64,000 nt of DNA from Escherichia phage AV123, in the sequence record OR352953.1; one strand, 5' to 3'. How positions within the stretch are numbered: the first letter of the stretch is position 1; every line of letters begins with the position of its first letter. The position numbers and the translations under genes were made by a program. Shown piece by piece: positions 40,981-61,329 of the stretch. Under the pieces are notes generated by a model that searched no databases, was not told the DNA's origin, and was given only the letters and a program-made list of their open reading frames with translations.

Positions 40981-41271
40981 ATGAACATCACACTAGCAAC
41001 TAAGAATATTACAGAAACTTTCGATGGTTTTGGCATTATTATTGCTGTTCATGGGCATAACGAAAAATGGTTAGCCTCTTTTGAAGAGGACAAAGAACGC
41101 AATGTACGTTTGAATGCACCAATCAAAGTTTTACACCAGGTAGGTGAGAATAAGAAACAATGGAGATCATACAAAGAGTGGAACATTACAAACGAATTAA
41201 TACACAAACTTGACAAAGTGCTAAACATGTTCGACAATGCACCAAGCAGTGCAAAACGTGTTTTACTATAA
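40981..41271 (+). CDS. Hypothetical protein
   Basis: ORF with AGAGG RBS. Confidence 0.5.
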   Translation: MNITLATKNITETFDGFGIIIAVHGHNEKWLASFEEDKERNVRLNAPIKVLHQVGENKKQWRSYKEWNITNELIHKLDKVLNMFDNAPSSAKRVLL

Positions 41272-45961: not shown

Positions 45962-46177
45962 TATTTTGAAAATTTTTATTTTTATAAAAAGGGGTGTGGG
46001 TTTCATGTACGGAAATTCACCCTCTGAATAATATATTCAGAGTAAATATTATTTTGTACTCTGTTAATAAATTATTTAATTTGTTTGTTGGATTATGATA
46101 TCTGGTTTTTAAAAGGCATACTATCTCTTAACTACTATTTATAACAGAACAGTAAAATCATTTTTATAAAAAGGACA

Positions 46178-46390
46178 AAATTATTTAAAGTTTTTACAGA
46201 TTTTTGGATACAAATTTTGAAAATGAAAAGTTCAAGTTTGGTCAAAATTATTTAAAGTTTTTGTATGTATTTCTATCCAGATTTTGAAAATGAAAACTTC
46301 AATTTTTTAAAAATTCCCCAGTTTATTTAAAGTTTTTTTGCCTTTTTCCGTAGAAAAATCAAAAATGAAAAGTTCAATTTCGTGTTTTTA
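46178..46390. repeat. Three tandem direct repeats (66-78 bp units)
   Basis: AAATTATTTAAAGTTTTT...TTTTGAAAATGAAAAGTTCAA recurs at about 46178, 46244 and 46320. Confidence 0.6.
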
Positions 46391-46394
46391 TAGG

Positions 46395-46510
46395 TGTGTT
46401 AATGAGAATCATTTTCGTTTGTAAATGAGAATCATTATCATTTAACTATGTAAGTGATAATCATTCTCACTAAGAGAATGAGAATCATTAGCAAATGAGA
46501 ATTTTTCTCA
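46395..46510. promoter_or_regulatory. Cluster of Fur-box-like palindromes
   Basis: AATGAGAATCATT (46401), AATGAGAATCATTATCATT (46424-46442), GATAATCATTCTC, and perfect inverted repeat AATGAGAA-TTT-TTCTCATT (46492-46510). Confidence 0.5.
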
Positions 46511-46774
46511 TTTAGAGAATAACGCGCAGGGGTGGTGTTTGTCTCGCGCTCCCGTGTCCCCTCGCCATACAATAAGAATAGCATAACCAACAACAAAAGC
46601 AAGCGATTATTTTTATCTTTACATTTCTTTACAAATTTATTTTAGACGAGCTACCAGCGATCAACCTTCCAACCAGTGCCCCCTGGTATGTTAGCCCCGC
46701 CTTTACGCCGTGGGGATGGCGCTTCCTCTTCTGTATGTAAAACAGTATAAGCCCGATCCCTGGGCTTGTCAAGA

Positions 46775-47041
46775 TTATTTTTTGTTTTCTTGCCAGGATA
46801 GGACACCTAACCAAAAATACATGTCGCCCCGCGCCCCTGGCGGGATCTTGCTTTCCCCGCCGCCACTGCAAGCCCATAGATAACCATTTGCGAACGTATC
46901 AAAATGATCTATTTCTTCCACCTTATGATCGCCCAGGTTGAGAACGGTTTCAACCTTTAAGCCCGTTGCGCTTGCTACCTGGTGCACCGTGCCGCCTTGC
47001 CAGCCTAATGAGTGCATGAGGTGTGAAGTAGTATTTGTCAT
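46775..47041 (-). CDS. Hypothetical protein, GC-rich gene on opposite strand
   Basis: AAAGAAAGGGCG leader and GCGCC...GGCGC hairpin upstream on - strand; GC-rich codons. Confidence 0.45.
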   Translation of the reverse strand: MTNTTSHLMHSLGWQGGTVHQVASATGLKVETVLNLGDHKVEEIDHFDTFANGYLWACSGGGESKIPPGARGDMYFWLGVLSWQENKK

Positions 47042-47246
47042 GGTATCGCCCTTTCTTTGATGTGCGCCCTGGTTGGCGCGGTAGAAAGATAATAGCCCTT
47101 TCCTTTATAGATAGCAAGCAAAAAAGAAATGAAAAAAAGATTAAAAAAGGGGTTGACGGTTGGAACGATTAACGCTATTTTGTTAGCCGTTCCAGTGTGG
47201 ATCACTGTAGCAATTGTTGTTTCAATCATTCTATAAGGCGCACACT

Positions 47247-47529
47247 ATGAGCAAGGTAATTAATCATAAAGAGTTAAACCCTACCCTTTCAATGAGTGAA
47301 TGTACCGATGGTTTTTGGCTGTATGATGATACGCGCGGTATGAATTTAGCCATGCGTGAAAAAAACAGAAGAGGCGGCGTATATTAAAGCCCTGGGCTAC
47401 TATCAGGAGCGATTAAAGGAAGTAGAAAACAATTATAATAACCTAAAAGCAAAAGTAGATCACTTTATCAGCCAGGTAGCTCATGACGACGATGATCACT
47501 ACTGCGAACAATGTGGATCATATAGTTAA
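47247..47529 (+). pseudogene. ORF interrupted at an A7 run (possible +1 frameshift or sequencing error)
   Basis: Frame from ATG 47247 stops at 47385-47387; downstream frame is open to 47527-47529 and reads as a coiled-coil continuation; A7 run at 47359-47365. Confidence 0.35.
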
Positions 47530-47547
47530 AATTATCTAAAAATATTC

Positions 47548-47607
47548 TTGACAACGTTTTTTAATCTGATAAGATGTAACAAATAAGGCGGGAAGTGGTT
47601 TCCCACC
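47548..47607 (+). promoter_or_regulatory. Sigma70-like promoter plus leader hairpin (PeSL-like cassette)
   Basis: TTGACA 47548-47553, -10 TAAGAT, hairpin GGCGGGAAGTGGTTTCCCACC 47587-47607, then RBS and ATG 47633. Confidence 0.55.
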
Positions 47608-47632
47608 AGGCAATCAAAGAAAGGGTAACACA

Positions 47633-56690: not shown

Positions 56691-57074
56691 ATGAGCAATA
56701 TCATCAACCTGGCGGCTACTGTAAACGGTAAAGACTTTAACGGCGCTGTAGACCGTGATCCTATGTGGTGCTTGTCAGTGTTTAAAGGTGACTTGGTTGA
56801 AGTTAGAACAACCGAAGGGTATAGCGATGATTATAAATGCGAGATCCATTTACACAACTGGTACACGGGTAAAACTTATGCACTGAATCATGCGTTTATC
56901 GGCAAGGTTGAATATAGAGAAATGATCGACGAAGAAACGGGGCAAGATTTTAGCGAGCATGTTTATATTCGTTCAGAAACATTAGCCGAACGTTTGATCG
57001 AGAAAATGAAAGCAAAAAATAAAATTAATTTATCTCATTGGATTGATATAACAAACGATCCAGCTTATCAGTAA
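56691..57074 (+). CDS. Hypothetical protein
   Basis: ACGAGGAA RBS. Confidence 0.5.
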   Translation: MSNIINLAATVNGKDFNGAVDRDPMWCLSVFKGDLVEVRTTEGYSDDYKCEIHLHNWYTGKTYALNHAFIGKVEYREMIDEETGQDFSEHVYIRSETLAERLIEKMKAKNKINLSHWIDITNDPAYQ

Positions 57075-57088
57075 ATAACATTTCAAAC

Positions 57089-57116
57089 AAGGGCGCTTAT
57101 TGCGCCCTTTCTTTTT
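57089..57116 (+). terminator. Hairpin terminator closing the island
   Basis: AAGGGCGCTTATTGCGCCCTTTCTTTTT. Confidence 0.7.
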
Positions 57117-57321
57117 ACCTAAATAAAGATGATAGCTTTTACCTATCAAAAACGTTCACCGAAAAAAGTGAATAGATCGCGGTATCGAGCTAATCAAGGA
57201 GCAGATGAACAACCATACCATGAAGATCATAAGGCGCTTACAACGTGTTTTAGACCGCTTATTTTTAATTTCTTCATGTAATTACCTGGCAAAAACAGCC
57301 TTTTTCTTGTCTTTCCTCTTA

Positions 57322-57397
57322 AATGATAATCATTCTTATTTATAGCTGATTATTTATGCAATAAATTGCATAATGCAATAATGAGAATCATTCTTAA
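57322..57397. promoter_or_regulatory. Fur-box-like sites flanking an 18-bp palindrome
   Basis: AATGATAATCATT at 57322-57334 (exact Fur-box core), TAATGAGAATCATTCTTA at 57378-57395, palindrome TATGCAATAAATTGCATA between them. Confidence 0.5.
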
Positions 57398-57689
57398 CTT
57401 AAGACCATCTAACCTATAAAATAATAAGTTATCTAACTAAATTAAAACTAATTATCTCACCTTTATTTATAACTTACTGTTACTATCTCATTGATAACAT
57501 TGTATTAAACAATAATAACTAATATAAATCATTACTAAGCTAAATATAATCTATCTAACCCTTAAAACTACAATTATAATCTATCGAATTGTTGCACAAA
57601 GTAACTATTAAATTGTTAGTAACATTACTAAATAATTCACATCCTATCTATTTATGATCTAATCTTTACCTTCCTATCTATTACTTAGA

Positions 57690-57737
57690 TAATCATTTCA
57701 TACAGTAACCATTTCATGTAGTAATCATTCCATACAA
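57690..57737. repeat. Three tandem 16-bp iteron-like repeats
   Basis: TAATCATTTCATACAG / TAACCATTTCATGTAG / TAATCATTCCATACAA. Confidence 0.55.
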
Positions 57738-58241
57738 TAACTATAACAAGAAATATAATTCGCAAGCGTATCATTAGCAGCCTATGCCGGACACATAGGC
57801 GGCTAATAATAACGCAACTACACACCCCACATAATAACCATCACCGATAGTTATTATTTGTGCTTATGTAGCTTGCAACAATTGCAAGCGCAACAATATA
57901 CTAGGGTATATTGTATCCCTTACATTGTTGCGGTGCGTTATTATTAGCTAATGTTTAGAACATTGGCTATAATATAAGCTATCCAATAATAAACATGGTG
58001 AATAATGACACTGATGATCATAATGCGCCACCCTCCAGGGGGCGCTATGTGAACACAAAGAAATCTTTCTTGTCAAGAAAAATATCACCATTATTGCGCA
58101 AAATTATTTATATCTGAATAGATGATTTTTCATACTATTGCCCCCTTGATTATTACCATTTGTTGAGCCTACTTTCTTAAAAGCGCAATAAAATAGAATT
58201 ATATTGATTTTTAGTCGGTTTTATAGTACAGAAAGTATGCA

Positions 58242-58455
58242 AATGATAATCATTATCAGCTATCTTCCACGGGTGGCACTATTTCACACCAGATCATTTC
58301 ATTTGGCAAGGTGTATATAGATGTTTAGACTTGCCAAGCCATTGATTTCCTTAGAATTTATCTGTTTTGTTGTGAGTAGTACCTTTCTTGCTTAGAAAAT
58401 AATCAAAAGTCTTATAAGTCATTGAATGATAATACAAATGATAATTATTCTCATT
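58242..58455. promoter_or_regulatory. Fur-box-like sites upstream of the 58.8-kb gene block
   Basis: AATGATAATCATTATC at 58242-58257 (16/16 to positions 4-19 of GATAATGATAATCATTATC); AATGATAATTATTCTCATT at 58437-58455. Confidence 0.5.
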
Positions 58456-58814
58456 GATATTTGAGGGGGACGGTCGGCAGAAATCGGGGGGTGCTGAAAA
58501 TCGCGTTAAGCACCTCTCGCAAGCGAGCAGTATTTTGCGGCAAGTTATTGATATTATTGACTTTACGCTTATGAAAAGGGGGTGTGTCGAAATAAATCGG
58601 GTATACCGGAAAATTTTTGTGGCATAGATATTTATTTGTCTATATTATGTACAAAGGGGTGTGTTAAAAATAATAGGTATATATAGAATAATTGATAGGG
58701 AATATCTATACTAATTCCTCCATTAATGATATTCCTATGCTACTGCTCTTGTAATAGATGAAAAGACGCTGTATGATGTGTGGCATGAAACGTAAACTTA
58801 TAAAGGAGTCTGAT

Positions 58815-59180
58815 ATGTGTGTTCCTCTTAGCAGTCCACTGCTGTTAGAATTTTACAAAGCATGGATGCAAGATCATTCCTCAATGCATCGTGAGAATGT
58901 TGGTTTGTGTATTTGCCTTATGGATTATCTGGCAACCACTATGTCAAAGAAAAAACCTACGCGAGAAGATATAGAACATTTCAAAATGGTTCGCAGTAAA
59001 ACGCTGGAAGAGATGAAATTGCAATTCACGTGTGCTGGGCTATCCTCCTTCCTGCCCTTTAATGATGATCTTCTGTGTTATGAAGATGAAGGTAAGAAAC
59101 ATTCTTGCCATACTAACCCAGGGAGATTGCAGTGGGTGAAAGACAGACTCGAAGATGCAAATAATGCTTGCATTGAATAG
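58815..59180 (+). CDS. Hypothetical protein, paralog family member 1
   Basis: AAGGAG RBS before ATG 58815; shares LLxFY, GLCxCL, LxPFN, RxQWVxDR blocks with 60961..61329 and 61953..62537. Confidence 0.5.
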   Translation: MCVPLSSPLLLEFYKAWMQDHSSMHRENVGLCICLMDYLATTMSKKKPTREDIEHFKMVRSKTLEEMKLQFTCAGLSSFLPFNDDLLCYEDEGKKHSCHTNPGRLQWVKDRLEDANNACIE

Positions 59181-60960: not shown

Positions 60961-61329
60961 ATGCAAGAGAATAGTAAAGTGTGTAGCATGAAAAGCAGCC
61001 CCTATTTGCTACAATTTTATGAGTGGTGGTTAGAACAAGAAGATACAAACTTTAGCAAAAAGCATTATGGTCTTTGCACGTGTCTTGTAGACTTCTTATA
61101 CAATATTGCTTGGATAAAAGATGTTGAGAATGTAGCAAACCTCCAGTCCTCTGTACGAGAGGAAATGAAGGAACAGTTTAAGAAAGCGGGTTTGAACCAT
61201 TTACACCCATTTAATACAGATTTCTCACATTACTTTACGGAAACAGAGTTAGGCATTGCACACCTTAACAAAGAACGTGTACAATGGGTGATTGATCGTA
61301 TTCGTGATATGGAGGAATACAATGGTTAA
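60961..61329 (+). CDS. Hypothetical protein, paralog family member 2
   Basis: AAGGAG RBS; conserved blocks as in member 1. Confidence 0.5.
   Translation: MQENSKVCSMKSSPYLLQFYEWWLEQEDTNFSKKHYGLCTCLVDFLYNIAWIKDVENVANLQSSVREEMKEQFKKAGLNHLHPFNTDFSHYFTETELGIAHLNKERVQWVIDRIRDMEEYNG

Follow-up and report, generated by a model that had tools for sequence, protein, structure and literature searches.

Genome ends of the phi92-like phage AV123: a direct terminal repeat with a candidate strand-specific folded element and Fur-box-like sites

In phage T7 short repeat arrays flank the terminal repeat at the concatemer junction, which also has a promoter or origin nearby and a hairpin-forming palindrome; in lambda, cos joins the cut site cosN to cosB, which holds terminase-binding repeats and a site for host IHF; and in T5, which injects its DNA in two steps, a non-coding region rich in repeats and palindromes at the edge of the terminal repeat is the injection stop signal. 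To our knowledge, the replication and processing of short-repeat genome ends are understood for T7-like phages only. Here we analyse the gene-free stretch 57075-58757 within 64,000 nucleotides of Escherichia phage AV123 (OR352953.1), hereafter the window, and compare it with these systems and with the related phage phi92. By homology, the region is very probably the genome-end or concatemer-junction region of a phi92-like myovirus with a short, T7-type direct terminal repeat (DTR). That identity is already known from the phi92 annotation and from reports on relatives; what merits further study is a folded element and a set of Fur-type sites, accessory elements whose roles we infer. An earlier note on this DNA had proposed a replication origin or packaging site: its packaging, or terminus, half holds, as genome ends and a 343-bp DTR map at 58166-58508, and its origin half found no support.

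Genome ends and the direct terminal repeat

The window belongs to a phi92-like myovirus (Justusliebigvirus, Stephanstirmvirinae), as 81 phage records match it, mostly Justusliebigvirus, with 93-96% identity in the best places. The gene-free stretch lies between plus-strand genes at 56691-57074 and 58758-59180, and annotated relatives identify the left neighbour as a homologue of phi92 gp248, the final gene of the phi92 genome, and the right neighbours as homologues of the first phi92 genes. The first base of the phi92 record (FR775895.2) corresponds to window position 58166, and its repeat is annotated at 1-343 (DTR-L) and 148270-148612 (DTR-R); UAB_1 carries the same annotation, so that in both records the repeat stands at both ends, as a short DTR should. 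The records of phi92, UAB_1, W22, PD114, VEcB and PHB05 open at 58166, that of PD06 closes there, and that of BME3, in the opposite orientation, opens at 58507 and closes at 58166. These eight Justusliebigvirus records, each with an end at 58166 or 58507/58508, mark fixed, reproducible ends, and a PhageTerm analysis of BME3 gave a DTR of 342 bp (PMC12210895). From the record ends of phi92, UAB_1, BME3 and the others we therefore assign 58166-58508 as the DTR and the region as the junction of the right and left genome ends. The motif that starts the repeat occurs once in the window, and the DTR is present once because the assembly collapsed its two copies. Virion DNA would then start at 58166 and end at 58508 of the next unit, with 58166-58508 at both ends, and the region would comprise about 1.05 kb of right-end non-coding DNA (57110-58165), the repeat and a 250-nt leader before the gene at 58758. 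The repeat, its boundaries and related motifs in the leader are as follows.

58166-58508, plus strand: direct terminal repeat, 343 bp, by homology to the phi92 DTR; single copy in the window
58159-58172, plus strand: left boundary motif TTTGTTG^AGCCTAC; physical left end at base 58166; TGTTG^AGC kept in eight lineages
58484-58513, plus strand: right boundary motif GGGGGGTGCTGAAAATCGCGTTA^AGCAC; physical right end at base 58508; kept in eight lineages
58574-58600, plus strand: leader motif copy 2, AAAAGGGGGTGTGTCGAAATAAATCGG, resembling the sequence that precedes the right cut; repeat family D4
58651-58680, plus strand: leader motif copy 3, ACAAAGGGGTGTGTTAAAAATAATAGGTAT; overlaps with a promoter-like match (58664-58692)

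The boundaries were compared in eight lineages, namely phi92-like, phAPEC8-like, two Klebsiella-phage types and four metagenomic or viral contigs, and yield the consensus ...TGTTG^AGC(C/A)... for the left boundary and ...GAAAAT(T)CGCGTTA^AGCAC... for the right, the two being separated by 329-412 nt. The Schickermooser (Phapecoctavirus) record ends exactly in ...CGCGTTA, and that of Klebsiella phage phi1_175008 in ...CGCGTT. In phAPEC8 the two motifs are 329 nt apart, in agreement with the published 328-bp terminal repeat of Schickermooser (Korf et al., PMC6563267). We propose that terminase would cut or nick at TGTTG^AGC and CGCGTTA^AGCAC on concatemeric DNA during packaging, and that the repeat would be regenerated by synthesis, as in other short-DTR phages. 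The leader copies of the GGGGGGTGCTGAAAATCGCGTTA-like sequence could be terminase-binding repeats or promoters; their pattern has four matches against 0.5 expected, and related motifs occur in the leaders of other lineages. In distant relatives (L011-L014), neither the boundary motifs nor a skewed spacer was found.

Two further observations concern the ends of related records. The module that precedes the left cut and ends in TGTTG^AGC is duplicated in phi92 (L007 2606-2665; CCCCCATAATTATCTTTATTTGTTA then CCCCTAAATATCCTATTTGTTG) and present in three copies in KP13-26 (L017 3235-3405), and from these copies the left boundary region appears to grow by tandem duplication. In the BME3 record (PP239276.1; L004/L005), about 720 nt of the region (window 58507 down to 57785) apparently stand at both ends, the 3' end carries a third copy of the repeat after these 720 nt, and the feature named 'DTR-L' is offset by about 73 nt from the phi92 repeat. 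That record nonetheless opens and closes on the phi92-type boundaries, and the duplication is probably an artefact of assembly or rearrangement.

The claim of the earlier note that the region holds no credible open reading frames (ORFs) is borne out, as ORFs within 57075-58757 reach 30-57 aa only, and five small ones, translated and compared with 15 related loci, are not conserved. Those at 57129-57281, 57205-57345 and 58454-58627 (plus strand) and at 57685-57825 and 57948-58091 (minus strand) were rejected as coding, being interrupted, frameshifted, indel-bearing or absent in relatives; the flanking genes, in the same comparison, are conserved at 60-99% amino acid identity. A scan for tRNA and tmRNA genes returned none. 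The gene at 56691-57074 is closed by a terminator, and terminators are annotated at the equivalent position in the PATM and Paula records.

57089-57109, plus strand: intrinsic terminator, 8 pairs (6 GC) followed by a T-run

Compared with PHROGs, nine flanking genes all have their best matches in families of unassigned function. The first gene right of the repeat (58758-59180) belongs, like 60961-61329, to a paralogue family (phrog_2510), which in AV123 and relatives has two to three copies, of 37-50% mutual identity, in the first kilobases of the left end. The region is AT-rich, as had been noted, with a GC content of 0.297 for 57001-58000 versus about 0.38 for the window, and the sign of the GC skew is reversed there against that of the plus-strand genes on either side. 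On the scale of the window, the skew changes sign near 41000 (blocks of about 6000-41000 versus 41000-64000), coinciding with a change in ORF strand bias, and the bins 46001-47000 and 57001-58000, both non-coding, are the sole 1-kb bins of negative skew in the plus-skew block.

The folded element and the Fur-type sites

Between the last gene and the repeat lies an element that appears to be undescribed, since it is not annotated in the records examined and was not found in the literature searched. It adjoins a spacer of biased composition and is followed, towards the repeat, by a further hairpin.

57766-57952, minus strand: conserved multi-hairpin element of about 185 nt, with covariation in 21 variants, about 215 nt from the repeat
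57400-57765, no strand assigned: AT-rich, fast-evolving, G-depleted spacer (plus strand A.41, C.175, G.052, T.363)
58025-58045, no strand assigned: GC-rich hairpin GCGCCACCCTCCAGGGGGCGC between the folded element and the terminal repeat, read from the sequence and also in phi92

The strong hairpins that the earlier note placed at 57790-57910 are present (I5, 57769-57811; I21, 57828-57860; GCTTGCAA-CAA-TTGCAAGC, 57871-57889; I12, 57883-57924). It had overlooked a perfect 15-nt long-range stem, 57802-57816 with 57934-57948, that encloses the last three of these; a separate hairpin at 57774-57806 has a conserved loop. A 191-nt segment folds better than its shuffles on both strands (z = -5.9 on the plus strand, -8.3 on the minus strand). 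Between genera the region aligns in blocks only, one of which, 57770-57893, retains about 81% identity, and covariation was assessed in 21 distinct variants from phage records, IMG/VR and metagenomes. The consensus structure contains 49 pairs in six helices, and 12 of these pairs show two-sided compensatory changes among the variants. Pairing is kept in 98.7% of cells, a value reached by none of 500 column shuffles and reduced to 25-55% when partners are slid by 1-3 columns. Hairpin 2 (57828-57860) illustrates this conservation, as its stem sequences are nearly all different among lineages and its pairing is always kept.

The folding also carries a strand signature. A structure-aware alignment holds 959 Watson-Crick cells, 64 cells that are G.T on the minus strand, at 10 pair positions, and no plus-strand wobbles; within the well-supported helices, every non-Watson-Crick cell is C.A on the plus strand, which corresponds to G.U on the minus strand. 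The minus strand is the more stable in all 21 variants, by a mean of 17 kcal/mol versus 6.8 +/- 4.1 in composition-matched shuffles. The spacer beyond the element, C-depleted when read on the minus strand, cannot be aligned to those of phAPEC8 and KP13-26, which are likewise G-poor on the plus strand (10% and 4.7%). Covariation, the strand of the wobbles, stability and the C-depleted spacer together point to an element selected to fold as a single minus strand, either as a leftward antisense RNA or as a displaced minus DNA strand. The form that we favour, though with limited confidence, is a leftward non-coding transcript that would start near the repeat boundary, read across the element and continue in the C-depleted spacer, there to prime synthesis, perhaps, or to stabilise the opened strands. 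Folding of a displaced minus DNA strand is a less probable form that the same evidence would also accommodate.

A structured non-coding RNA had been raised before as an alternative to an origin or packaging site. For the hairpin cluster, in which twelve pairs covary, that suggestion is stronger than was supposed; the strand that folds, however, is the minus one, which runs antisense to the genes on either side. The Rfam/Infernal scan proposed at that time yields sub-threshold noise only: the whole window has no Rfam match at gathering thresholds, and within the region at E <= 5 the best scores are 16-23 bits, against thresholds of 50-102. By covariance model, the element is single-copy in the window and has no match in the distant relatives L011-L014. 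Its position and orientation relative to the genome end are the same in phi92-like, phAPEC8-like and related Klebsiella phages, and database matches in the phi92-/phAPEC8-like, Klebsiella and rV5-like groups number more than 250 in all (138 + 118 records).

A candidate homologue lies in the Vequintavirus LL12, whose terminal repeat, determined by PhageTerm, spans 459 bp in a 2.5-kb non-coding region (PMC6658697). Our covariance model R1 matches LL12 at 29.4 bits (rough E ~1e-7), 210 nt beyond this repeat, with the same layout of closing stem, internal hairpin and terminal hairpin as in AV123. A gene with 90% identity to phAPEC8 gp246, which in that genus is the final gene ahead of the non-coding region, lies opposite the match in antisense orientation; the synteny and orientation of the match therefore agree with those in the window. 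Just beyond the LL12 repeat boundary, an 11/12 sigma-70 match (TTGACA-16-CATAAT) is directed at the element, and LL12-type sequence occurs in 118 Vequintavirus records. The right repeat boundary of LL12 (L129 2890-3000) is itself straddled by about eight GACAC/TGACA units at a spacing of about 10 bp, an array that includes two strong sigma-70-like matches (10/12 and 11/12) and has no equivalent in the phi92-like window. Several records named 'Campylobacter phage' (host C. jejuni), among them MG065639, MG065645, MG065656 and MG065689, are 94-96% identical to the AV123 region, and other records so named match the Vequintavirus element; these host labels appear doubtful.

The second set of accessory elements resembles binding sites of the host iron regulator Fur. 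Scored against the 19-bp E. coli consensus GATAATGATAATCATTATC, four sites flank the element or lie within the repeat.

57319-57337, no strand assigned: Fur-box-like site 1, TTAAATGATAATCATTCTT, 14/19; repeat family D1
57377-57395, no strand assigned: Fur-box-like site 2, AATAATGAGAATCATTCTT, 15/19; overlaps the -35 of a weak promoter-like match at 57394-57422 (plus strand)
58239-58257, no strand assigned: Fur-box-like site 3, GCAAATGATAATCATTATC, 17/19; 73 nt inside the left repeat boundary
58428-58458, no strand assigned: Fur-box-like site 4, overlapping boxes, 13-14/19 (14/19 at 58434); about 75 nt from the right boundary

The earlier note had recorded Fur-box-like sites without assigning them a role, and the four, at 14, 15, 17 and 14 of 19, exceed chance and are mostly conserved in position; a strong match to the 19-bp consensus, or to at least three GATAAT-type hexamers, is one mark of a Fur operator. 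Across the window, sites of at least 15/19 number six versus 0.43 expected, and the core AATGAKAATCATT has 12 matches versus 0.64 expected, all in two non-coding regions; five further Fur-like sites are tightly spaced at 46398-46510 (13-16 of 19). From these counts and the z-scores of the fold, the listed features are therefore beyond chance. On the far side of the element, away from the repeat, a Fur-like site stands 220-440 nt off in all eight other regions, five of which have two. All eight also have Fur-like sites inside the repeat, each of the two repeat positions being missing in one lineage: the left-side position is occupied 71-167 nt from the left boundary in seven of eight lineages, and the position of site 4 at -69 to -81 nt from the right cut, again in seven of eight. 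In E. coli, site 3 is best matched in two places, on plasmids about 67 nt upstream of an FTR1 iron permease gene, and between chuA and chuT, the chu heme-uptake genes being Fur-controlled; a third match examined lies among transposase pseudogenes.

Positional conservation and the E. coli matches at iron-uptake loci make binding by host Fur plausible, and we consider it rather likely that the protein binds the four sites. There it could regulate promoters near the ends, serve as an architectural cofactor or be titrated; Fur could couple promoters or an end-processing complex to iron status, or be soaked up as phage DNA multiplies. The Fur-type sites are unannotated in the records examined and appear undescribed: our literature searches, one query of which was too broad to help, found no paper on Fur boxes in phi92-like phages and no phi92-like transcriptome.

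Competing explanations and the question of an origin

The account that joins these parts, in which the element is an undescribed structured RNA or single-stranded DNA signal that serves packaging or the replication of the ends, perhaps by priming or by forming an R-loop, and Fur is recruited to nine operator-grade sites, is possible but doubtful as a whole. Several observations count against the main reading itself, that of genome ends with accessory elements. The ends of AV123 are deduced from relatives about 95% identical and not from reads of the isolate itself, and cleavage at the motifs is deduced from record ends and conservation. Because the boundary 9-mer GTTRAGCMC is not statistically unusual within the window, the boundary claim rests on conservation across lineages, and the two boundary motifs are direct repeats, where the simplest staggered-nick scheme predicts opposite strands. 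For the leftward transcript in the phi92-like and phAPEC8-like lineages, a scan of the element-repeat interval in nine sequences found no positionally conserved minus-strand sigma-70 promoter, no clear terminator was found after the element, and in LL12 a weak terminator-like hairpin stands between the promoter match and the element. The wobble asymmetry could in part be a bias of C-to-T mutation on a minus strand that is often single-stranded, and the invariant GCTTGCAA-N3-TTGCAAGC hairpin may be the palindrome of a duplex-binding protein. Finally, the LL12 region has no Fur-like site of at least 14/19, and such sites are thus not essential to the shared end architecture.

The palindromic hairpin leads to a rival account, which we regard as improbable, that the element consists of duplex-DNA cruciforms or protein-binding palindromes recognised by terminase, with no single-stranded form at all. 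The 8-3-8 stem of that hairpin is invariant in nearly all variants, and the element lies about 215 nt from the cut site; however, the stems of hairpins 1 and 2 and the closing helix change sequence and stay paired, which a duplex-binding site does not need, and a cruciform would not confine all wobbles to one strand. That confinement also led us to set aside the hairpin-primer model of T7 for the element, which requires folding of the plus strand. A minus-strand transcript would fit an R-loop or primer-RNA origin resembling ColE1 RNA II or T4 oriF, in which the leftward RNA folds and then hybridises stably in the C-depleted spacer, priming DNA synthesis. R-loops are associated with the GC-skew sign of a G-rich, C-poor transcript strand, and the spacer beyond the element has 17.5% G and 5.2% C on the minus strand, the one that folds; this composition is kept in phAPEC8 and KP13-26, where the sequence is not, and the strong promoter match of LL12 is directed at the element. 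Yet the scan of phi92-like and phAPEC8-like lineages gave no conserved promoter, and the spacer composition could be a mere mutational footprint. We judge such an origin unlikely; it is compatible with the terminus identity of the region and not an alternative to it. For the Fur-type sites, the chief rival is an iron-governed control region for early promoters, in which Fur represses genome-end promoters when iron is plentiful. Four operator-grade boxes, most of them fixed in position across lineages, promoter-like matches at 9/12 that overlap sites 2, 3 and 4, downstream genes that are small and of unassigned function, as is typical of early genes, and nearest E. coli matches at iron-uptake promoters all speak for it. 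These promoter matches, however, reach just 9/12, with 21 in the region against 13 expected, none is conserved across genera in our scan, the fixed distance of site 4 to the cut fits an architectural role at least equally well, and LL12 has no such boxes; iron control of this kind seems to us somewhat unlikely.

An iteron-type origin, in which an initiator binds the 16-bp repeats and the AT-rich core unwinds, is very improbable. In its favour are a 365-nt AT-rich, G-depleted core and the tandem repeat with hairpins nearby.

57690-57741, plus strand: 16-bp tandem repeat ('iterons'); Tandem Repeats Finder (TRF) period 16, 3.2 copies, 75% matches, score 62; family D3

The three tandem 16-bp repeats of the earlier note are real, though at this modest score they are the weakest of the listed features, and they show neither the conserved repeat number nor the conserved sequence that mark iteron origins, which also have an adjacent initiator gene or DnaA boxes. 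The unit is present in three copies here versus two in phi92. The repeat is the lowest-identity 50-nt block in the genus (0.67), in a within-genus profile that discriminates poorly, all sequences being 92-100% identical and one truncated sequence depressing the first 400 nt; in the sister genus Phapecoctavirus, an unalignable spacer occupies its place. DnaA-box-like sites number 93 in the window versus 102 expected, with no perfect box in the region, and none of the nine flanking genes scanned against PHROGs matches a replication initiator. Copy-number variation, low conservation, the spacer of the sister genus and the DnaA and PHROGs negatives therefore leave an iteron-type origin unsupported, and the 16-bp repeats are probably slippage products rather than iterons. 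The motif ATCATTAGC was considered as iteron-like and dropped, as it is over-represented across the window (38 versus 20 expected) with only five occurrences in the region. A second large non-coding region, 45962-47630, has longer repeats, a 67-bp tandem repeat in two copies at 46176-46306 (TRF score 185), and is no weaker a candidate for an origin or control region than the stretch 57120-58757 considered here. It also carries the AAAGGGGTGTGGG motif, as in the leader, at 45988, a GC-rich tail and negative GC skew; its phi92 equivalent contains one small minus-strand coding sequence only.

The region matters for practical and mechanistic reasons. The phi92 group is a frequent source of isolates for therapy and biocontrol, and the opening point of most database records is arbitrary; with the two boundary motifs, the true ends and the repeat can be placed in any member from sequence alone. 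A strand-specific element whose distance from the end is constant in three phi92-like lineages, with a candidate also in a second subfamily, is a mutable handle on end replication and processing in short-repeat myoviruses. Should Fur be recruited, this would tie genome-end function or early transcription to iron, or titrate Fur, and titration would raise iron uptake for the phage's own iron-dependent enzymes; in a phage whose group is described as lytic, such sites would connect the iron status of the host with phage development in an unusual way. Should the accessory elements be inert, the region reduces to the already annotated terminal repeat and its flanks.

Comparison with known systems

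The nearest described counterpart is the phi92 DTR, a homologous locus with about 97% identity over the stretch that holds the repeat; its 343 bp begin and end on the same bases as here, and it too lies between gp248 on the left and small early-type genes on the right. The two differ in that the AV123 window has one collapsed copy in continuous sequence, three 16-bp units where phi92 has two, and no counterpart of the 35-nt duplication just before the left cut of phi92. The phi92 record annotates nothing in the region beyond the DTR. Against the E. coli Fur operators, the AV123 sites compare well in their matches of 14-17 of 19 and in the overlapping hexamer arrays at site 4, whereas they stand in a phage whose group is described as lytic, clustered at its genome ends and in a second non-coding region and not before iron-uptake genes.

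Among the more distant systems, the T7 concatemer junction shares with this locus a short, non-permuted repeat with defined ends, arrays of related short motifs adjoining the boundaries, and hairpin-forming DNA towards the right end, some two hundred bases away from the repeat. T7 belongs to an unrelated phage family with no sequence similarity, its palindrome is simple whereas the AV123 element is a 185-nt multi-stem structure under strand-specific selection, as judged here, and we know of no T7 counterpart to the Fur-type sites. The T5 region is likewise a gene-free stretch on the kilobase scale, with direct and inverted repeats, adjoining a terminal repeat boundary; its repeat, however, is about 10 kb long, and it acts in injection, on which nothing in AV123 bears. 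Lambda cos resembles the AV123 ends in combining a cut site with a short array of related repeats and a putative host-protein site at a fixed distance, here site 4, which in seven of eight lineages keeps a distance of about 75 nt to the right cut. Lambda ends are 12-nt cohesive ends, in contrast to the 343-bp direct repeat of AV123, and where lambda uses IHF, the candidate host factor at the AV123 ends would be Fur.

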